Shown: one piece after another, positions 1-10,985 of the stretch
Layout: each line of letters opens with the position of its first letter
How positions within the stretch are numbered: the stretch's first letter is position 1
Origin: Methanosarcinales archaeon
GTDB lineage: Archaea; Halobacteriota; Syntropharchaeia; Alkanophagales; Methanospirareceae
Reading direction: 5' to 3'
DNA length: 50,158 nt
Assembly (NCBI GenBank): GCA_030611045.1
Contig: JAUWQN010000003.1
Coordinates: 1 to 50,158 of the forward strand
Notes under the pieces: generated by a model
Seen by the model: only the letters and a program-made list of their open reading frames with translations
Told to the model about the DNA's origin: nothing
The model's database searches: none
Program-made: the position numbers and the translations under genes

Positions 1-1150
1 TTGAGCTGTTCAACAAAATAAAGCATCTTGAGACAGAATCGTCTACATTGATCTATGACATCACCTCCACGTATTTTTATTCGACAAAATTGCCTAAAGC
101 GCGACTCGGATACAACCGGGATGATAACAGCTTACCCCAGATAAACATCGGATTGGTCGCAACAAAGAACAAAGGTCTACCCGTCCTTTTCAGGACGTAT
201 GAGGGAAATATAACAGATGTGAGGACGGTAGAACAACTTGTTGCAGATGTTAAACGGGTAGACTTCCGCATTGATGCGATAATCCTGGATCGGGGGATGG
301 CGTCAAGGAATAATTTACTAAAGCTGGATGGAGATGGCCTGAAAATAATTGGGGGTATCCCTCTAACGTCCAATGAGGCTAAAGAGCTGGTAGCGCGCGA
401 TATATCCGAAGAAAATGAGTTGATGCGTCCCTCAGGTCTAATCTATTACGAAGACCTCGCTACATCGCTGTTTGGCATTCCTGGTAGGGCAATTATTTGC
501 TTCAATCACAGTGATCTTGAGAGAGAACGCACGGCACGATTGAAAAAGATAGGTATTGCGGAGATAAAAGTCGCGGAGATCTTGTCTTCGCAGACAGGTA
601 ATGAAAATCCAGATAGTCTGGAAAAGGAAATACGAGCGGCAATCCGTGGAGTTTCTGATTATTTTGTGATAAACAACGACGGGAAAACAATAACCGTAGC
701 GCCTCACGCAGAAAATCGAAGAACTGCAAGGCTGCGAGATGGCAAATGCTTGCTTTTCACCACTAATTTTGAGAAGAGTGCATCGGAGATTATTGCCACG
801 TATTTTGGTAAGGATGTCATTGAAAAGATTTTCGATTGCTTCAAAAACTGGCTAGATCTGCAGCCGGTAAGGCATTTTGAGGAGGGAAACATTGACGTTT
901 ATATTTTTATCTGCTATCTTGCATATCTGGATTTGGCACTGTATAAGCATCATTTAGGCGTTACGGGTTGGGCGGGTGTGGAGGATAGTCTGGATGAACT
1001 GGGTAGAATACGAAAAACTACGCTTGATTTTGGTGGAGAAAGCAGTGATAAAATTTCCGTTCTCACTAAAGAGCAAAAGGAGATTATTGAAAAGTTGGGG
1101 TTTGCGGATAGGCTTTTCGGGTTGTAGCCCATACAACTCTGAAAGTCAGG
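1..1150 (+). mobile_element. IS1634-family insertion sequence (left end outside the window); transposase frame open from the window start to the stop at 1127
   Basis: Motifs YDITSTYF, GYNRD..LPQINIGL, YEGNITDV, DRGM and IEKIF..FKN.LDLQPVRH are typical of IS1634 DDE transposases. The right end is placed at ...CTGAAAGTCAGG (1150), where the IS701 reading frame breaks. Confidence 0.85.
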
Positions 1151-3046: not shown

Positions 3047-4096
3047 TTAAAGCTTTGATGTCTTTTCATGAAGTTTGCTAATAACTTTTTGAAAGACGTC
3101 CAGGGCTTTCTCTGCCAAATCTTTATTCGTAAAAATTGGCTCTGATGGAGGGACTTCTTCAAAATTTATTATTGTTTGGTCTCCTTTTGAATGAATTATC
3201 TTGTGTCTCCACTTTATGAACTTCTGCGCTTCAACCAAAATGTCATTTGGGATACCAATTTCCCAGATTTTTAAACCATACCCCTTATTATACGCATCTT
3301 TAAAGGATTCCCAATTTTGAAAGTTTACTGATCTTCTTTCGATAAAAACCTCTAATTCCGTTTTTCCTTGTTTGCTTGTGGTTTCATTTATTTCTCCTTT
3401 GAATTGCTTCCTATATTTCTTGGGAATAAAACGCTCATACAAACCTTCCATATTTACAACCTTACCTTCCTTTTCAAACTCAACAAATCTTGTTCGAGCA
3501 TATACCTCAAAAGCTGTTGTTAGCATGACAATTATCTGTTGAGCTAAAGTCGATTCAAAAAGGAAATCTCCTTTCTTGCAGTTTTCGATCAGTATTCTTA
3601 CTTTCTCCATTTGGAAATCAAAAATCTCTCTTGCCATGGGTTCTAAAACGACTTTTTCGCCAACCTTAACCCTATAAAATCCAACTTGAATGCCTTTATC
3701 TCCTATTTGATAAATTGCTCCATCTTTGCCCACTCGAAACTTAATATTAGGATCTTTAATAGACTTTCCATTTCTAAATTCGCTTCCATAGTCTCCGACG
3801 TAAATGGTATTTTCCTTTTCTGACCATGTGAAAGCAACGAATAACTTTGGAGCATCATGAAAATCTCGAATACTTATTTTTGCGGTTTTCGTTTCGTAAC
3901 TCGGATTACTCTGAATAAACCTAAGATTAAAATCAGAATCTCTTTCTAAAATAAAAACTGTTTGGCCTTTGGCTATTTCAAGTATTCTAATCAACGGTGT
4001 ACCTTCATCAAATAGATTTGATTCACTTACAACAAATTCAACTGTCCCTTCCTGTTCATTTAACTGTTCAACAGGAATCCTAAGTGGGTTATACAT
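3047..4096 (-). CDS. Putative gene-cassette protein: beta-rich N-terminal domain plus C-terminal HEPN-like domain
   Basis: AT-rich 349-aa ORF with a GGAGG RBS. IIVMLTTAFEVY helix, FQN motif and RHKIIH (R-x4-H) near the C-terminus. Confidence 0.65.
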   Translation of the reverse strand: MYNPLRIPVEQLNEQEGTVEFVVSESNLFDEGTPLIRILEIAKGQTVFILERDSDFNLRFIQSNPSYETKTAKISIRDFHDAPKLFVAFTWSEKENTIYVGDYGSEFRNGKSIKDPNIKFRVGKDGAIYQIGDKGIQVGFYRVKVGEKVVLEPMAREIFDFQMEKVRILIENCKKGDFLFESTLAQQIIVMLTTAFEVYARTRFVEFEKEGKVVNMEGLYERFIPKKYRKQFKGEINETTSKQGKTELEVFIERRSVNFQNWESFKDAYNKGYGLKIWEIGIPNDILVEAQKFIKWRHKIIHSKGDQTIINFEEVPPSEPIFTNKDLAEKALDVFQKVISKLHEKTSKL

Positions 4097-4479: not shown

Positions 4480-4731
4480 CTATTCACCCGAAGTCGCATA
4501 TATCTCATACGGCATTATCTTCTTATTCGCCTTCTTCTTCCCTTTCAATTTACTTACAAGGCTAGCGGCTTTCTCCTTCTTCTGGCGCTTCTTCAACCGT
4601 TCCATTATGCTTGCCATCTCATTCTCTTTTTCTTCATCGCCGTATTCTATCTCTTCCTCACTTAGCGCTTCCTCTTCCTCTTCTACTCCCTCTTCTATCT
4701 CCATGCTCCCTTCGGAAACCGCCACACTCAC
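4480..4731 (-). CDS. Pup/UBact-like small protein modifier (83 aa, C-terminus YATSGE)
   Basis: Low-complexity charged protein (Glu-rich then Lys-rich) ending Gly-Glu like Pup (GGE/Q) and UBact (R[ST]G[EQ]). It follows two PafA/Dop homologues. GTG start with purine-rich AAGGGGATGAG upstream. Confidence 0.85.
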   Translation of the reverse strand: MSVAVSEGSMEIEEGVEEEEEALSEEEIEYGDEEKENEMASIMERLKKRQKKEKAASLVSKLKGKKKANKKIMPYEIYATSGE

Positions 4732-4852
4732 GTTAATCTCATCCCCTTTTTACCTTGCAAGCAAATACCGTTACTTAAAAATTATCCTTGTTTCTATTTA
4801 TCATTTTTCATTCATTCATTGATACTGAATAAAACTAACTCTAAATGTTACG

Positions 4853-6442
4853 TTACAGAATCACCTTCTCGGGGTATAATCCTTTCGCGGCTGCTAAAAT
4901 CACCTCTAAGTCTGCACCTTCCATCAGTTCATCACTCATCTCATCCTTATTCAGCATAAACGGCTCGTCCAGTATTATTTTCGCTTTGCCAACCGTCATC
5001 GTTGACCAGCTAATATTTCTTACACGCGAGCGGTATCGTTTCAATAGTTCAACTTTAAAAAATTCTCGCGTCTGCTCGGGTGCATTACTCAATGCATAGT
5101 TCACTCGTTCCGGAAGCGAGGACCAATCCACATCCGGCAATTTGCTCTTTGCGAATGCTAATGAATCCTTTGGATTGAACAGGCAATCACTTATTATACT
5201 TCCTTTTTCGTCATCGAGGTAATACCGCACGCTCTCATCCAGCAATGCATATTGGTTACAGACACTCATGCCTTCAGAGGCAGTTTTTGGCTCGTAATTC
5301 ACAAGCAACGCCAATTTCGTTACCCAGTCAATACCATCCACGTAGTTCTCCAGGCTCCGCGCTTCTAAGTCTTCTATCAGATTATTAAAACAGTTTAGCC
5401 CTATTTCATCCCACTTACCCACTTCTCCACCCTCATTATCCTGCATCTTCTCTATCGCATCTAAATAAAACCGTAAAATGGATACCGCATCTGTTCTCTC
5501 TCCGGTCTTCAATTTTATCGCCCACTCGCAGTCCTGTGTATCCAGTGATAGTTTCTTGAACGCTCTTACCGGGTCTTCTATCTCTGGTGCATCATCTAAA
5601 AAGTCCAACTCAAACGCACGCGTTACCAGCGCTTGTGTGATATCACGCAAGAAAATCGCATATTCAGAACGAAGCGCCTCGTAATGAATATCATGCAGTC
5701 GCCAATACTGATGCGCGGCATGGGGCTGATCTCTCGTGTTCAGGATGCCTCTTCCCGTAGTGGTAGAAAGCGAAGATTTTTGCACAACAAACATCGCTCG
5801 TGGTGAAATAACGAACTTCACTCCCCCTTTACCAACGTTCTCTCCTGAAACAACATCTCCGGATCCGGTGAACAGTATTCTTGTAACGACCCAGGGTATG
5901 AGCGCTTTTTCTACACGACTCCAATCTTTGCACGCTGCCCGGTTTGTGATTATATTCCCATGCGTAGCGTAGGTATTGGTCTTTATCTTTCCCCCTTTAC
6001 CCGTCCGCATACCAGTTTCAGGAGAAGGAGAAGAAGGAGAAGAAGTAAAGAAATTGGCAACATTATTCTTATGGATGACTATTTTCTCCTTTAACGCTAA
6101 ACTCGCCTCTCGCGACCCCACAAAGGCGTAGATCTCTGATGCTTTATCGTATGCCACGGCGTCAAAAGGGTTATTATAAGACGGTGTTGCAATCTCAAGA
6201 TGCCCCATATCGTTATAAATCCGAGAGCCGTTATCACCGTATGAAGACGTTATTTTCGATTCATGCAGCTCTTGCGAGACTTCCGTAATAATGTCCCACG
6301 TCACATCTCTTGAAAATCCGCTCCTTTTTAAACCTTGAATCGCAGCATTAACCAGCAATGAAGGATTTAAGCGTGCTTTCGCACTCACTGGATATTCCTG
6401 CTCAATTCCCCTTATCTTATTCTCTGTCCCTATCCGTGGCAC
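4853..6442 (-). CDS. dop: Dop-like depupylase/deamidase (Pup-ligase/Dop family)
   Basis: GIEQEY, a TWD Dop-loop-like insertion, NGSRIYNDMGHLEIATP (compare Dop NGARLYVDHAHPEYS.PE), YATHGN, RGILNTRDQPHA...RLH and DWVTK. Confidence 0.75.
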   Translation of the reverse strand: MPRIGTENKIRGIEQEYPVSAKARLNPSLLVNAAIQGLKRSGFSRDVTWDIITEVSQELHESKITSSYGDNGSRIYNDMGHLEIATPSYNNPFDAVAYDKASEIYAFVGSREASLALKEKIVIHKNNVANFFTSSPSSPSPETGMRTGKGGKIKTNTYATHGNIITNRAACKDWSRVEKALIPWVVTRILFTGSGDVVSGENVGKGGVKFVISPRAMFVVQKSSLSTTTGRGILNTRDQPHAAHQYWRLHDIHYEALRSEYAIFLRDITQALVTRAFELDFLDDAPEIEDPVRAFKKLSLDTQDCEWAIKLKTGERTDAVSILRFYLDAIEKMQDNEGGEVGKWDEIGLNCFNNLIEDLEARSLENYVDGIDWVTKLALLVNYEPKTASEGMSVCNQYALLDESVRYYLDDEKGSIISDCLFNPKDSLAFAKSKLPDVDWSSLPERVNYALSNAPEQTREFFKVELLKRYRSRVRNISWSTMTVGKAKIILDEPFMLNKDEMSDELMEGADLEVILAAAKGLYPEKVIL

Positions 6443-6455
6443 TTCCTTTCTCCTT

Positions 6456-8192
6456 CTACACTTCCTTGCTTATCTCTGCTATCTTCTTCTTTATTGATTC
6501 CTCATTCCAGCCATCCAGTTCATCGAACCGGAACGTTTTGTTATTAGCATACAACAGGTAATCTAAGTATGGGTTTCTGACGATTCTATCTCTTATTTCC
6601 CTGCTTATCTCATCCTCCCAGCCCCTTATATCATCCTCCTCGGCGAGCAATCGTACGAGAACCTGTCGTGCTCCTTCTCCTCTACTCCGCTCTCGGCAAA
6701 ACACCACTACCGCACTTGGCATTCTCGCGAGTTCCGGATAACGCTCAAACAGCCGTGCATATTCCTCGCTGCTCGGTCTGCTCACATCTATCTTCACATT
6801 TGGCTCCTTGTTTATCGTTATCTTATTCCAGCTTAGTGTCGCATTCTCGAATGCAGACGCAAGTCTAACCCGTAACTCGGCTCGCGAATTCTTCGGTGGA
6901 AAGAGTAACGCTTCTCCTACATCCTCTTCGGTTAGTATTCGTTCCACTCCAATCTTATCCGCAACGCACTCGTATAAGTCGTAATCACAGAGATTGGTGA
7001 AATCAAAAGATGCGGCTATCTTCTTCTCCATCTGATCTTCCATCATATACATGCTCCGGTAATCAAACTTCCCTATTGGGATGTAGTTGTATTCAAAATC
7101 ATTTATCTCGTTCTTTATCGCCCATAACTTCATTACCCATTCTATGCGACGGAAAACGTAAGGATCTTCAAGCAATCCCTGGTCAAACTTGGCGCAAATC
7201 CTCTTAAAAGTATCCAGGGCATATTTATCCCAGTAAGAGACTTTTCGCTCCTCAAACAACTCCTCTATTGCTTCGAGATAGTAACTCGTAAGGTAATCAA
7301 TGGCGGATTCCGTCCTCCCATTCATCAGCTTTATGCGCCAGTCACCTTCCGTATTCGCTGAAATATCTTTAAAAGTATGAAGTGGATTCCAGATCTCTTC
7401 CACATGCGTGATTTTCCCTGACTCTATCGCATCTATTACATACGACGTAATGGCATTGCAGAGCAACCTTGTGACCTCCGAACGAACTCCTTCGCCTGAC
7501 GTAACATGCACACGATATGTATCCCTTGTGCTCAATGGTTCGTCCCGTGTGGATAATATCGGCCACTGCGACGGTGATTCGGTGAAAACCCTTCGAGAAA
7601 CCATCGCTTTGGGCGATATTACGTATTTTATCCCTTCTTTATCCGCCACATAACCTCCAGCGCCAAAGAATATCTTACGAAGCACCAGAAACGGGATGAG
7701 TAAATTCTCTTTGCCTACAAAATTCTTCCGGTCCACTGTATATGACTCGTGCGTGCCCCTGCTGTACCTCTTGTCTATCTCCACGTTTGCTTTCCAGCAC
7801 TGGATATAGGCTAAAGACCTCTTTCTCTTCTTCAATTTCTCTCGGTATCGTTCGTTTGCTTTCTCCACGCCTATCTGCATGTACAGCTCTGCTGCCTTGT
7901 CATATTTAAGCACCTCGAAGGCATCTCTACATTCAGGCGTTGCTATCTCGAGATGCCCGCCCGTGCAGATGTAAATTCGCGATCCATTCCTCAAAAAGCC
8001 ATCGTTCCTTCTACGCAGCTTCGAGCAGATCGCATTCGATTCGTCAAAAAAAGTATAATTCTCGAGTGCGCGAATTACTTCATCCACATGATAAAATCTT
8101 GCATAACGGTACAATCCCGGTGATTCGGAACTTAGGCCCACCCTAAATTCATGCTCGAGCCCTTGCCATTTGTTCAAATCCTCCCTTTCCAT
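6456..8192 (-). CDS. pafA: PafA-like Pup--protein ligase (Pup-ligase/Dop family)
   Basis: GLEHEF, FLRNGSRIYICTGGHLEIATPEC (compare PafA [23 protein letters not shown]), RGTHESY, ILSTRDEPL...RVHV, IEWVMK and PP.NSRAELR. Confidence 0.75.
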   Translation of the reverse strand: MEREDLNKWQGLEHEFRVGLSSESPGLYRYARFYHVDEVIRALENYTFFDESNAICSKLRRRNDGFLRNGSRIYICTGGHLEIATPECRDAFEVLKYDKAAELYMQIGVEKANERYREKLKKRKRSLAYIQCWKANVEIDKRYSRGTHESYTVDRKNFVGKENLLIPFLVLRKIFFGAGGYVADKEGIKYVISPKAMVSRRVFTESPSQWPILSTRDEPLSTRDTYRVHVTSGEGVRSEVTRLLCNAITSYVIDAIESGKITHVEEIWNPLHTFKDISANTEGDWRIKLMNGRTESAIDYLTSYYLEAIEELFEERKVSYWDKYALDTFKRICAKFDQGLLEDPYVFRRIEWVMKLWAIKNEINDFEYNYIPIGKFDYRSMYMMEDQMEKKIAASFDFTNLCDYDLYECVADKIGVERILTEEDVGEALLFPPKNSRAELRVRLASAFENATLSWNKITINKEPNVKIDVSRPSSEEYARLFERYPELARMPSAVVVFCRERSRGEGARQVLVRLLAEEDDIRGWEDEISREIRDRIVRNPYLDYLLYANNKTFRFDELDGWNEESIKKKIAEISKEV

Positions 8193-8220
8193 TTCTCATG
8201 TCAGAGTTAAGTTAACCAAA

Positions 8221-9852
8221 TTAAAAGTGCATTCCTGTGTCTTCCTCTGGCATCTCTTCATATCCTGATACTAATATCTCCTCTGCTCTTCGCTGCACAA
8301 ACTTATCAAATCCTTCTTTTAAGTGCCCCATATTCACACCTATCTCCTCTATGTGCTTATATCGCTTAAGCAAATCCTCTACCTTCTTTCCCACGTCTAA
8401 TATCTCCGAAAAACCTTCTTTATCCCATACGTTCCTCAGCGCATCGTTGCTGATAGCACCTTTTTTCATCATCAGCATTGTCCGCTCCTCCAACGCCTTA
8501 TCTCTCGCATAACCAAATATCTGCGCGATGAACCGCCCGGTTATTGCATCCTCTCGCTTTATCCGCCCTATTTCTGTCTCAACGTACGTGTCACTATACA
8601 TGTAACGGACAATCTCTTCCACCAGATAGGTCCTCGCCTCTTCTTCTCCCCCTTTCTCCTTTATCAGGTAGCGGTCGAGCGGGATTTTTTTTGCGTAAAT
8701 CCGTGCGATGGAATAAGCAGCTTCTCTCTCTGGCTTCGAGACCTCGATTATCTTGTCAAATCGCGACCTAAATGCGGAATCTATAAGATGCAGCCGGTTT
8801 GTTGCACCGATTACAGTGAGGTGTGGATGCAGGGCGTAAAAACCATCTAAAATATCCAGTAGTTGTCCCGTAACTCTTTCCGGTGCACCGGACGACCCTG
8901 TGTACATACCTCTTTCTTGCGCTAAAGCATCTATCTCATCAAAGAAGATTACACCATAATCGTTCTCTCCCTCCTCTAATTTATCGTTCGCAGCCTTGAA
9001 CACCATCCTTACATTCTTCTCTGACTCGCCAAGCCACATGCTGAACAGCTCTCCGGCACCCACCTTTACAAATTCACAGTTGGGTAATGTAGATGCTAAT
9101 GCTTTTGCGCACATTGTCTTCCCACATCCAGGCGGACCGTACATCAGTATCCGGCGGGAACTTTCGCCATATTTAGAGTAATCCTCAGGATTTACCATCG
9201 GAAGAATAATGCTCTCTATCAAGTCCTGTTTCACTTCCTTCAAGCCACCGATATTATTAAAACTCACTTCAGGGCTCTTTGTGACTTCATAGCGAGAGTA
9301 CTCCTTTGCCGTATAACTTTTCTTTATATCAAGCGTACCGGGAAGGAGTCCTACCTTCATCCCCTCTTTTACCGTTTCCTTTTCTTCATCCCGCAGCCTT
9401 TTATATATCCTACCACGACCTTTTCCAGTGGATACTTCAACTATCCAGCCATCACCATCATCTTCCTTTCTCAGCTCCTCTACCTCTCCAACCTCTAAAT
9501 CAACCATCCGGTCATATATGTTGGTGATTCCTATGGTAAACCCACTGGGGTTATTCCTATCCGGGATGCGTCCTATGAACACGTACTTTCCCTCTTGTAG
9601 CTCCTCTATCTCCTTCTCAGTAAGCGTCCCGTAAGGTAAAGATTTTAATGCCCCGTTTAAATTCACGATGGCACCGTCGTTAAGTTTCTCAACCACGAAT
9701 CCGCAGTCTAATGGTGGTGCCCTTGATTTTGAAACAAGCTTCTCTAAATCCTCTTTATATGCTTCTGTCTCCTCGTATTTCCTTCTTAACCTTCGATAAT
9801 CGCTCTCTAACCGCTCATACTCGTATCTTGGAATATAATCCTCTTGTTCCAT
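8221..9852 (-). CDS. Proteasome-associated AAA+ ATPase, ARC/Mpa-like
   Basis: N-terminal coiled coil, two OB-like segments, F.NIGGL, Walker A GPPGCGKT, pore loop MWLGESE, Walker B FFDEID, IGATNR...D.AF..RFD and C-terminus TGMHF. First gene of the pafA/dop cluster. Confidence 0.85.
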   Translation of the reverse strand: MEQEDYIPRYEYERLESDYRRLRRKYEETEAYKEDLEKLVSKSRAPPLDCGFVVEKLNDGAIVNLNGALKSLPYGTLTEKEIEELQEGKYVFIGRIPDRNNPSGFTIGITNIYDRMVDLEVGEVEELRKEDDGDGWIVEVSTGKGRGRIYKRLRDEEKETVKEGMKVGLLPGTLDIKKSYTAKEYSRYEVTKSPEVSFNNIGGLKEVKQDLIESIILPMVNPEDYSKYGESSRRILMYGPPGCGKTMCAKALASTLPNCEFVKVGAGELFSMWLGESEKNVRMVFKAANDKLEEGENDYGVIFFDEIDALAQERGMYTGSSGAPERVTGQLLDILDGFYALHPHLTVIGATNRLHLIDSAFRSRFDKIIEVSKPEREAAYSIARIYAKKIPLDRYLIKEKGGEEEARTYLVEEIVRYMYSDTYVETEIGRIKREDAITGRFIAQIFGYARDKALEERTMLMMKKGAISNDALRNVWDKEGFSEILDVGKKVEDLLKRYKHIEEIGVNMGHLKEGFDKFVQRRAEEILVSGYEEMPEEDTGMHF

Positions 9853-9959
9853 ACTTATCTATTAAAGTGTATGTACTTGATTTTATAAAAATCCATTGCC
9901 TCTCCTCCATTTTTATATAATAATATTAAATATATATAGAGATATAAAGAGGATAGAGA
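9853..9959. promoter_or_regulatory. Divergent AT-rich promoter region between the ATPase operon and the PhoU-type regulator
   Basis: TATA-like TTTTATAAAA (about 9881) and TTTTATATAA...TAAATATATATA (about 9911-9938) between head-to-head genes. Confidence 0.5.
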
Positions 9960-10985
9960 ATGAAAGAGGAGAAGAGAAAAATACAACTCACCGGTGGTTC
10001 AACATTTACTATCTCGCTTCCTATAAAATGGGCACGAGAGGTGGGTGTAAGGCAGGGAGATGAGCTCTCGTTAATTCAACGTGGTGATAAATCACTCGTC
10101 TTAACCCCGTTGAAGGATAAAAAAGAGCAGATAAAATGCGCAGAACTCATTCTCTCGGAAAAAGAGAGCTTTGAGGGCAACTTCAGGTATCTTATCGCTC
10201 ATTACCTCGTTGGGTATGATGTTGTAAAGCTGTTATCGCCAGGCGGTTTTGAAGCTGAGGAGAGAAAGAGGATAAAGGCGGAAGTGAGGAAGCGGCTGAT
10301 AGGCATGGAGGTTGTTGGCGAATCGTCAAAGGAGATAGTGCTCAAAAGTTTCTTGAAATATGAGGACTTCACGCTCCAGGATGCGATACGGAGTATGTCC
10401 AAGATAATTTTATCAATGCACGAAGATACGATTTATGCACTTGAGAAAAGCGATCATAACCGTGCAAAGGATGTTATAGAGCGGGATAACGAGATAGATA
10501 GATTTTATTTGCTCATTGTTCGGCAGCTTAAGGCGGTGATAAGAGACCCAGAGCTTGCGAAGAAAATAGGGGAGAGCAGACAGCGAGATAGCCTGGGCTA
10601 CCGGATTATCGTGAAGAATATGGAGCGGATAGGTGATCATATCGAGAGCATAGCAAAGAATTCTATGATGATGAGCACACCGGTAGGGCTAAAAAGCATA
10701 AAAGAGCTCGGCACTCGCACGAGAACACTCTTTACCCAGACCTTAGCTTCCTTATCAAACAATGATATAGTAAAGGCGAATGAAGCGATAAGAGATGCAA
10801 ATGCGCTGGTTGATATGGTTGAAGAGATAGATGAGCGAATCTTAGCAGAGGAATGGAGTGTTACAGATAAGATACACGCTATTTCTATACTGGAGAGTTG
10901 GGGGCGAATAGCGAAGTATTGCGAGGATATAGCAGAGGTAACGATAAATCTTGGGATAGAGGGCGTAGAGGAATCAGAGTTTTAA
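9960..10985 (+). CDS. phoU: Phosphate uptake regulator (AbrB/MazE N-terminal domain plus two PhoU domains)
   Basis: RKIQLTGGSTFTISLPIKW, RDNEIDRFY and ERIGDH. Confidence 0.9.
   Translation: MKEEKRKIQLTGGSTFTISLPIKWAREVGVRQGDELSLIQRGDKSLVLTPLKDKKEQIKCAELILSEKESFEGNFRYLIAHYLVGYDVVKLLSPGGFEAEERKRIKAEVRKRLIGMEVVGESSKEIVLKSFLKYEDFTLQDAIRSMSKIILSMHEDTIYALEKSDHNRAKDVIERDNEIDRFYLLIVRQLKAVIRDPELAKKIGESRQRDSLGYRIIVKNMERIGDHIESIAKNSMMMSTPVGLKSIKELGTRTRTLFTQTLASLSNNDIVKANEAIRDANALVDMVEEIDERILAEEWSVTDKIHAISILESWGRIAKYCEDIAEVTINLGIEGVEESEF

Follow-up and report, generated by a model that had tools for sequence, protein, structure and literature searches.

We have analyzed a stretch of DNA of 50,158 nucleotides from a Methanosarcinales archaeon (GenBank assembly GCA_030611045.1, contig JAUWQN010000003.1), referred to below as the window, which carries between positions 4480 and 9852 an operon of four genes for an AAA+ ATPase, two paralogous enzymes of the Pup-ligase family (paralogues A and B) and a small charged protein, the candidate tag. 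By analogy with known systems, the operon probably encodes an archaeal counterpart of pupylation, that is, a reversible gamma-glutamyl-lysine tagging module with its own tag family, its own enzyme duplication and a dedicated unfoldase; we put the probability of this reading at about 0.7. It is carried by the family membership of the enzymes, their conserved ATP and magnesium residues, the conservation of the genes together throughout an archaeal order, the Gly-Glu end of the tag and a predicted interface between tag and enzyme.

All four genes lie on the minus strand. The ATPase gene (8221-9852, 543 amino acids; coiled-coil, OB-like and AAA+ regions) is followed by the genes of paralogue A, here also called the Cys type (6456-8192, 578 amino acids), of paralogue B, the Asp type (4853-6442, 529 amino acids), and of the tag (4480-4731, 83 amino acids, C-terminus YATSGE). 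An earlier note on this DNA, made from the sequence alone, had described four co-oriented genes separated by 28, 13 and 121 bp, and the listing of open reading frames (ORFs) and their translations bear this out. Its family assignments also held, for the AAA ATPase (a relative of PAN and Mpa), for the two paralogues of the Pup-ligase family and for the small charged protein with its Gly-Glu end. The note was likewise right that the host is an archaeon and that the operon lacks 20S genes. The genome encodes a true PAN and a true Cdc48, the public records nearest to it bear the titles ANME-1, Methanophagales or Candidatus Methanospirareceae, and the archaeal 20S alpha and beta genes are found on other contigs. 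The window is contig C33 of this genome, which has a size of 1.54 Mb and is rated 99% complete.

Both enzymes score well above the Pfam cut-off of 25 bits for Pup_ligase (PF03136), the hidden Markov model that the earlier note had proposed as a check, with 192.6 bits for paralogue A and 212 bits for paralogue B. AlphaFold2 models of the two proteins have predicted local distance difference test scores (pLDDT) of 81.4 (A) and 81.7 (B). In Foldseek these models match Dop and PafA chains with best E-values of 2.9e-26 (A) and 2.1e-24 (B) and template-modelling (TM) scores, by target, of 0.69-0.85, which places both proteins in this fold. The GhExE motif reads GLEHEF in paralogue A and GIEQEY in paralogue B. 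The columns G11, E13, E15, N69, Y74, E82, H148, R227 and H229 are invariant across both archaeal clades, and the conserved Tyr, Glu, His, Arg and His kept in both enzymes correspond, when mapped through alignments, to the Mg and nucleotide ligands of Dop given in PMC8599861.

The two paralogues differ two residues after the conserved Tyr, at the position of the residue that Table 1 of PMC7947786 calls "the catalytic Asp". The segment RIYICTGGHLEIATPEC of paralogue A carries Cys76 at this position and aligns column for column with RLYLDVGSHPEYATPEC of the PafA of Nonomuraea. This PafA comes from one of two actinobacterial records taken from a plasmid collection, the Nonomuraea record (Dop, Pup, PafA) and a Tsukamurella record (annotated ARC, partial Dop); the Nonomuraea references were verified by NCBIfam (Dop 786.1 bits, PafA 760.6 bits, both above cut-off). 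A Cys occupies the position in 54 of 56 locus orthologues of paralogue A and in 115 of 120 database hits; the remaining five are N-terminally truncated. The corresponding segment of paralogue B, RIYNDMGHLEIATPS, has Asp78 at Dop-like spacing, and this residue is invariant in the alignment; of 120 database hits, at least 114 have it. The invariant Cys of paralogue A had been missed by the earlier note. Paralogue A keeps all of the ATP and Mg ligands and also resembles PafA in having a one-residue insertion after the catalytic position, a Gly at PafA-Gly66 and a Phe at PafA-Phe54 (compared with the same Table 1, PMC7947786). In distant A-type relatives the Cys occurs with Dop-like spacing; the insertion is therefore perhaps convergent, and it is the Cys that defines the clade. 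Paralogue A has a C-terminal extension of ~110 residues that is not present in PafA or Dop, and paralogue B has a low-complexity insert at about residues 133-155. The Dop-loop, described in PMC8599861 as 40-65 conserved residues before strand beta2, is not found at full length in either archaeal type: the archaeal insert is ~16 residues shorter than that of Dop and ~14 longer than that of PafA, and its alignment with the Nonomuraea Dop-loop is confined to the second half of that loop.

PF03136 was found in all 40 other genomes of the window's order and in none of 260 genomes from the phylum's other families (41 of 301 in all). In a first sample of relatives 27 of 41 genomes had it, including all 24 from the window's family and both from the order's second family, but none of the 14 from farther away. 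A scan of species-representative genomes yielded 64 related loci, whose titles name ANME-1/Methanophagales, Methanospirareceae, Methanoxibalbensis (62% identity), Alkanophaga (58%) and three Bathyarchaeia contigs (37%). The gene order ATPase, A, B, tag is seen again in nearly all loci long enough to show all four genes, and since most of the 64 loci have this same order, the operon is far beyond what chance would produce.

A few individual loci deserve mention. In addition to the operon pair, a third PF03136 gene, unlinked to it and coding for ~500-530 amino acids, is present in some genomes of the order (G050:C14:2216-3400, G060:C56:4260-5336 and G023:C1:196025-197314). In one Methanophagales metagenome-assembled genome (MAG; L075:5767-7709) paralogue B is split into the overlapping ORFs 5767-7077 and 7074-7709, by a frameshift or an assembly error. 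Tag and paralogue B are found at both ends, in opposite orientation, of one contig (L036/L037, 13.6 kb; G061:C191), which looks like a palindromic assembly artefact and not a true duplication. Three loci titled Desulfobacteria bacterium (L022), Nitrosotalea sp. (L024) and Bathyarchaeia archaeon (L070, 95%) hold operon copies 78-95% identical to the window; very probably they represent ANME-1 contigs that were assigned to the wrong MAG during binning.

The small protein behaves like a modifier in its near-invariant C-terminal half, its order-wide presence and its Gly-Glu or Gly-Gln end. Its N-terminal half varies in sequence and is acidic, with a net charge of -16. The last 46 residues, which end in KKIMPYEIYATSGE, are basic and nearly invariant (net charge +9, 12 Lys), and every one of the 22 invariant columns of the tag alignment falls in the C-terminal half. 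The last ~45 residues are near-invariant while the enzymes are 58-95% identical across loci, also when genera are compared in which enzyme identity is down to 60-80%. By tblastn the tag lies downstream of paralogue B in 45 loci; the earlier note had named a tag not conserved next to the enzyme homologues as a refutation. Of 68 genomes from the order, 61 give a hit with a profile built from 20 tags, as do 22 of the 23 rated high-quality. In both genomes of the order's second family the tag is on a different contig from the enzymes; it is therefore retained even when unlinked.

Searched against a collection of 5.8 billion proteins, the tag profile finds 79 proteins. All record names shown are archaeal, all of the proteins are named "hypothetical" except one mislabelled "ribosomal protein L4", and none of the 79 contains a Pfam domain. 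Their C-termini are YATSGE (67), YATAGE (8) and YATSGQ (3), with one sequence truncated, so that 75 of the 78 complete copies end in Gly-Glu and three in Gly-Gln; the pair of residues before the terminal one is Ser/Ala-Gly and not Gly-Gly. A conserved Gly-Glu end with an occasional Gly-Gln is a hallmark of Pup, in which Glu and Gln alternate at this position. A further profile match (E 2e-13, profile positions 20-59) was seen inside an open frame of 1282 amino acids in the same genus (G001:C24:23406-23525), which may be mere charged low-complexity similarity.

Binding of the tag to an enzyme is supported by structure prediction. The predicted complex of paralogue A with tag residues 36-83 scored 0.88, and the best of three controls scored 0.02; in calibration, 58 of 80 solved complexes and 2 of 110 mismatched pairs came up to this mark, counts that are only a rough guide because custom alignments were used. 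The runs have at least 72% of contacts in common, with a partner pLDDT of at least 79. Tag residues 51-83 are placed on paralogue A, with each of residues 69-83 in predicted contact. The predicted interface on the enzyme comprises E15, Cys76 and residues 78-80, which is the active site, and the C-terminus of the tag sits at Cys76 in the model.

The ATPase matches PF00004 with 121 bits (Pfam cut-off 21.2) and has a Walker A motif (GPPGCGKT, 239), a Walker B motif (VIFFDE, 301), a pore loop (WLG, 273) and sensor-1. Beside PAN and Cdc48 it is the genome's third AAA unfoldase of the classic type. Over residues 157-394 its sequence is 35% identical to that of the genome's own PAN, with which it has in common the coiled-coil/OB junction RAPPL..G.VVE; identity to the annotated Tsukamurella ARC is 30% over residues 174-422, including a segment past the AAA core. 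None of the named models claims it: scores are 164.7 and 175.3 bits for the PAN models TIGR01242 and NF003069 (cut-off 500), 157.9 bits over residues 39-473 for Mpa/ARC TIGR03689 (cut-off 504.75) and 147.2 bits for the Cdc48 model (cut-off 802.65). The N-terminal coiled coil is among the best-conserved parts of the protein (0.88-0.93 over 50 sequences). The C-terminal 149 residues match no relevant Pfam family, and the extreme tail, E[ED]TGMH[FYL], is found in 49 of 49 full-length orthologues. The nearest clusters in the ESM Atlas are Mpa-type bacterial ATPases carrying PF16450 and PF17758, which is a lead only.

From these results we infer the following chemistry, targets, division of roles between the paralogues and link to the 20S proteasome. 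The invariant C-terminal half of the 83-residue tag would occupy the long groove of one of the Pup-ligase-family enzymes, and the side-chain carboxylate of the tag's C-terminal Glu would be phosphorylated with ATP, for ligation to target lysines. The second paralogue would undo the bond and, in lineages with a Gln-ending tag, would deamidate the tag first. The co-transcribed ATPase would recognise and unfold tagged proteins, and would either hand them to the native 20S proteasome via its TGMH[F/Y] tail or remodel them without degradation. The role in glutamyl-isopeptide tagging that the earlier note had proposed thus stands as the best reading, favoured by the order-wide conservation of the tag and by the controlled complex prediction.

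A number of results weigh against this reading. The tag has no match to any Pfam or NCBIfam model (E<=0.1 for each), none of 20 tag sequences matches the Pup family (PF05639) even at E<=10, hhalign of the tag profile with the Nonomuraea Pup gives a probability of 0.08, and no match came from the ESM Atlas (best score 0.77); moreover, the conserved half is basic instead of acidic. By these four means the tag is not a detectable homologue of Pup. Neither enzyme reaches the NCBIfam cut-off for PafA (TIGR03686: A 156.6 bits, B 143.3 bits, cut-off 551.3) or for Dop (TIGR03688: B 174.8 bits, A 150.8 bits, cut-off 492.3). Paralogue A lacks the catalytic Asp and is therefore possibly inactive or engaged in other chemistry; in PafA the D64N variant served to trap the Pup complex (PMC8599861). 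Complexes of PafA and of Dop with Pup have been solved, and our prediction is therefore perhaps partly a memory of their groove, although the tag sequence itself is unlike Pup. In the ATPase, residues 1-189 match no Pfam OB-domain model (E<=10), a kind of model that the earlier note had proposed to search with. The textbook tails that dock to the 20S are HbYX and, in Mpa, GQYL; the tail TGMHF is neither. The genome already has PAN and Cdc48, and its 20S therefore needs no third activator. Finally, an adjacent A-type and B-type pair (L081:4529-5881 and 5995-7590; also L078 and L079) was found in only 6 of 151 genomes of the class around one Bathyarchaeia genome, and on the Bathyarchaeia contigs examined no ATPase or tag was seen near the pair.

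One-to-one orthology of the paralogues with PafA and Dop was rejected by phylogeny. A tree of 26 sequences and 494 columns (IQ-TREE, LG+C20), which has long branches and includes three bacterial references, none of them from UBact-type systems, contains a clade of PafA with Dop (100/100), a clade of A-type (100/99) and a clade of B-type enzymes (100/99), the latter two each with Bathyarchaeia members. Forcing the A-type together with PafA costs 47.8 log-likelihood units in the approximately unbiased (AU) test (p-AU 0.0003; the group was chosen once the tree was known). The labels "PafA-like" and "Dop-like" of the earlier note therefore hold as statements of resemblance and not of orthology. 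As PafA and Dop stand apart from both archaeal clades, we read the archaeal duplication as distinct from that of PafA and Dop.

The assignment of roles between the paralogues is delicate. At odds only slightly better than even, and by analogy, we would make the Cys-type A the ligase and the Asp-type B the deligase and deamidase. The Asp-type is nearer Dop on every measure: 174.8 bits for the NCBIfam Dop model versus 143.3 for that of PafA, 118 versus 69.8 bits in phmmer searches of the PDB, a Foldseek TM score of 0.84 versus 0.74 and 127 versus 117 bits by BLASTP to the Nonomuraea proteins. In Foldseek its first six hits are all Dop (TM 0.78-0.85, root mean square deviation ~4), followed by PafA (0.72-0.74, deviation ~7). 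The fold of the Cys-type matches both Dop and PafA and alone does not separate the two, but this enzyme shares the PafA-specific insertion, Gly and Phe, scores higher by BLASTP with PafA than with Dop (152 versus 123 bits) and retains every ATP/Mg ligand. The Asp of Dop is thought to activate the hydrolytic water (PMC8599861), so that its loss fits a non-hydrolase.

With the roles swapped, the Asp-type would be the ligase, and the Cys-type a hydrolase or deamidase with Cys76 as nucleophile, or else a non-catalytic tag receptor. We consider this rather unlikely, given the resemblances just listed, yet it has points in its favour. The Asp-type enzyme has the complete canonical active site, and in general enzymology thiols work well as nucleophiles in the cleavage of amides and are poorly suited to deprotonate lysine as general bases. 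The tree ties neither paralogue to PafA or to Dop. The A-type protein of Bathyarchaeia lacks both the Cys and the adjoining conserved Arg and may therefore be degenerate, which hints at degeneration of the lineage. Returning to the Cys-type as ligase, Cys76 might take part directly: after phosphorylation of the Glu, a gamma-glutamyl thioester would form on Cys76, from which the tag would be transferred to target lysines. Such an E1/E2-like relay, unknown in the superfamily, strikes us as improbable. If it were true, together with the separate tag and the separate duplication it would make the ANME-1 system an independently evolved third kind of prokaryotic modifier pathway and not transferred pupylation.

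The small protein need not be a protein tag at all. It could be a ribosomal precursor or carrier whose C-terminal Glu is ligated to a small-molecule amine, for a cofactor or peptide natural product, with the ATPase as a chaperone. ANME-1 has unusual cofactor chemistry, and the tag shows no detectable relation to Pup. Glutamine synthetase and gamma-glutamyl-cysteine ligases, superfamily members that act on small amines, appear among the lower Foldseek hits (see also Iyer et al. 2008, PMC2588565). We nevertheless regard this explanation as very improbable. No further biosynthetic genes are conserved beside the operon, and a translocating AAA unfoldase with a coiled coil typifies the recognition of tagged substrates and not biosynthesis. 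The two paralogues and the Glu- or Gln-ending tag mirror the ligase/deamidase logic of pupylation, and the predicted binding of the tag uses the long groove of the Pup type.

The fate of tagged proteins depends on the relation of the ATPase to the proteasome. The genome's true PAN (L088:1387-2616, contig C71) scores 583.7 bits and its true Cdc48 1064.8 bits. PF00227 proteins are encoded on two other contigs; NCBIfam identifies one as the archaeal beta subunit (253.1 bits against a cut-off of 224) and the other as the archaeal alpha subunit (265.8 bits against 219). This PAN itself ends in ...GVMFA, with Phe where HbYX has Tyr, and both proteasome-type ATPases of the genome therefore depart from the textbook tail. 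Docking of the operon ATPase to the 20S is possible, with chances somewhat below even, and is not required to explain the genes.

The same tagging system might instead be wholly uncoupled from the proteasome, the tag being a regulatory or protective mark and the ATPase a stand-alone, tag-directed unfoldase or remodeller. A proteasome-independent role of this kind has been suggested for those actinobacteria in which pupylation persists although they lack a 20S. Corynebacterium glutamicum offers a precedent in our control searches, where it matches PF03136 and is not among the 10 control genomes that match PF00227, and the Pup-ligase loci of Plesiocystis and Rhodopirellula lack proteasome linkage in the account of them in Iyer et al. 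(2008, PMC2588565). In the window's genome, the absence of 20S genes from the operon, with the archaeal 20S on other contigs, the availability of PAN and Cdc48 as regular activators and the His in place of the HbYX Tyr all point the same way. Against uncoupling, the extreme C-terminal tail is kept in 49 of 49 orthologues, as in activators that dock to rings; the genome's own PAN is also off HbYX (...VMFA), so that the alpha-ring pockets of this lineage may accept tails without Tyr; and the intact pore loops suggest translocation into something. On balance we find uncoupling doubtful.

The regions around the genes give some indications of their expression. The operon is separated from a divergent gene by 107 bp of A+T-rich sequence (9853-9959, not assigned to a strand), which is likely to contain the promoter of the operon. 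The 121 bp spacer 5' of the tag gene (4732-4852, minus strand), read from the sequence, has a purine-rich ribosome-binding-like stretch, AAAGGGGATGAG, a few bases 5' of the GTG start of the tag and is A+T-rich farther upstream; it may thus hold a separate promoter for the tag gene. Contigs (Logan) assembled from three metatranscriptome libraries, each of a different study, align at 85-99% identity to the tag and ATPase genes and to portions of the two enzyme genes; this is only a weak hint of expression because DNA carry-over is possible, and gaps in the cover carry no information.

The divergent gene (9960-10985, plus strand) encodes an AbrB/MazE-type DNA-binding domain fused to PhoU domains and scores under the NCBIfam PhoU equivalog cut-off. 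Its place next to the ATPase gene is conserved in 47 related loci; a full-length ATPase gene was present in 49, and in 45 of these the sequence reaches at least 1500 nt upstream. It could be a regulator of the operon, or else its position could merely be conserved synteny with SRP54, which together with this gene and a DUF7847 gene makes up the conserved neighbours of the operon. On the side of the tag gene, two DDE transposase genes and a weak HEPN-like gene (3-1127, plus strand; 1084-1860 and 3047-4096, minus strand) separate the tag gene from the DUF7847 gene (1936-2841) in the window. In 19 other loci the DUF7847 gene directly follows the tag, and the HEPN-like gene was found in none of the related loci examined. 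Since the other loci lack them, the transposase and HEPN-like genes appear to be local insertions beside the operon. That the operon itself is a mobile or defence element was considered and ruled out by its presence in 40 of 40 genomes of the order and by its conserved housekeeping neighbours.

The ANME-1 module would thus work like pupylation yet falls outside PafA, Dop, Pup and Mpa by the membership searches described above. The enzyme genes have not gone unseen, since public annotation already names their products "PafA2 family protein" or "Pup--protein ligase"; the tag has no name. We found no paper that ties Pup, pupylation or PafA to ANME-1, Methanophagales or methanotrophic archaea in a search that did not extend to the UBact paper or to supplements, so that an earlier passing mention is possible. 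The texts of two large ANME-1 comparative-genomics studies, taken without their supplementary gene tables, do not mention the proteasome, PafA, ubiquitin or Pup. Pupylation is treated as bacterial, chiefly actinobacterial, in the literature consulted; the evolutionary study of PafA and Dop by Hecht et al. (PMC7947786) deals with bacterial phyla only, and the word "archaea" does not occur in its text.

If our reading is right, a complete Pup-like module is fixed in a whole archaeal order alongside the standard PAN, Cdc48 and 20S, in organisms responsible for a large share of anaerobic methane oxidation in marine sediments. Archaea would gain a second route of protein tagging, one that does not use a beta-grasp modifier, and the question arises whether an archaeal 20S can receive substrates from a tag receptor of bacterial style. 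The independent duplication with its change of Asp to Cys would be a natural experiment on the switch between ligase and hydrolase. A previously unannotated and extremely conserved small protein can now be named and searched for on lysines in ANME metaproteomes, and the four proteins are of a size suited to reconstitution in E. coli.

The closest parallel is the actinobacterial Pup-proteasome system. It likewise has two PF03136 paralogues with GhExE and the same Mg and nucleotide ligands, a small tag gene directly 3' of one paralogue (dop then pup in the Nonomuraea locus L107), a Gly-Glu or Gly-Gln tag end and a coiled-coil AAA ATPase at the head of the cluster; the ANME-1 tag is predicted, as in that system, to dock its C-terminus in the active site. 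The ANME-1 operon differs in its archaeal host and in lacking prcBA. Its tag, unlike Pup, has a basic conserved half, ends in Ser/Ala-Gly-Glu and not in Gly-Gly-Glu/Gln, and has no detectable similarity to Pup. Its enzymes form two clades of their own and score 143-175 bits where the PafA and Dop equivalog cut-offs are 492-551; one of them has Cys for the catalytic Asp, and both are without a full-length Dop-loop. The tail of the ATPase is TGMH[F/Y] and not the GQYL of Mpa.

Outside the actinobacteria, UBact, reportedly described by Lehmann and colleagues in 2017, is said to combine a Pup-like tag of its own family with PafA/Dop-family enzymes and an Mpa-like ATPase in Gram-negative bacteria (Nitrospirae, Verrucomicrobia and others). 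UBact loci reportedly include bacterial 20S genes as a rule, unlike the ANME-1 operon. Absence of 20S linkage is shared with Corynebacterium glutamicum, as seen in our control searches, and with the Pup-ligase homologues of Planctomycetes (single-copy), Plesiocystis and Rhodopirellula (PMC2588565, PMC7947786). The Plesiocystis and Rhodopirellula enzymes are described in PMC2588565 as having four transmembrane segments, whereas ANME-1 has two soluble paralogues together with an ATPase and its own tag. The archaeal PAN-20S system with SAMP/Urm1 resembles the present one in the PAN-like coiled-coil/OB junction and AAA module of the ATPase and in the presence of a native 20S. It differs in that the ANME-1 conjugation enzymes have the glutamine-synthetase fold and are not E1-like, the tag is short, charged and, where predicted to bind, helical, unlike the beta-grasp modifiers, and the true PAN of the genome is a separate gene.

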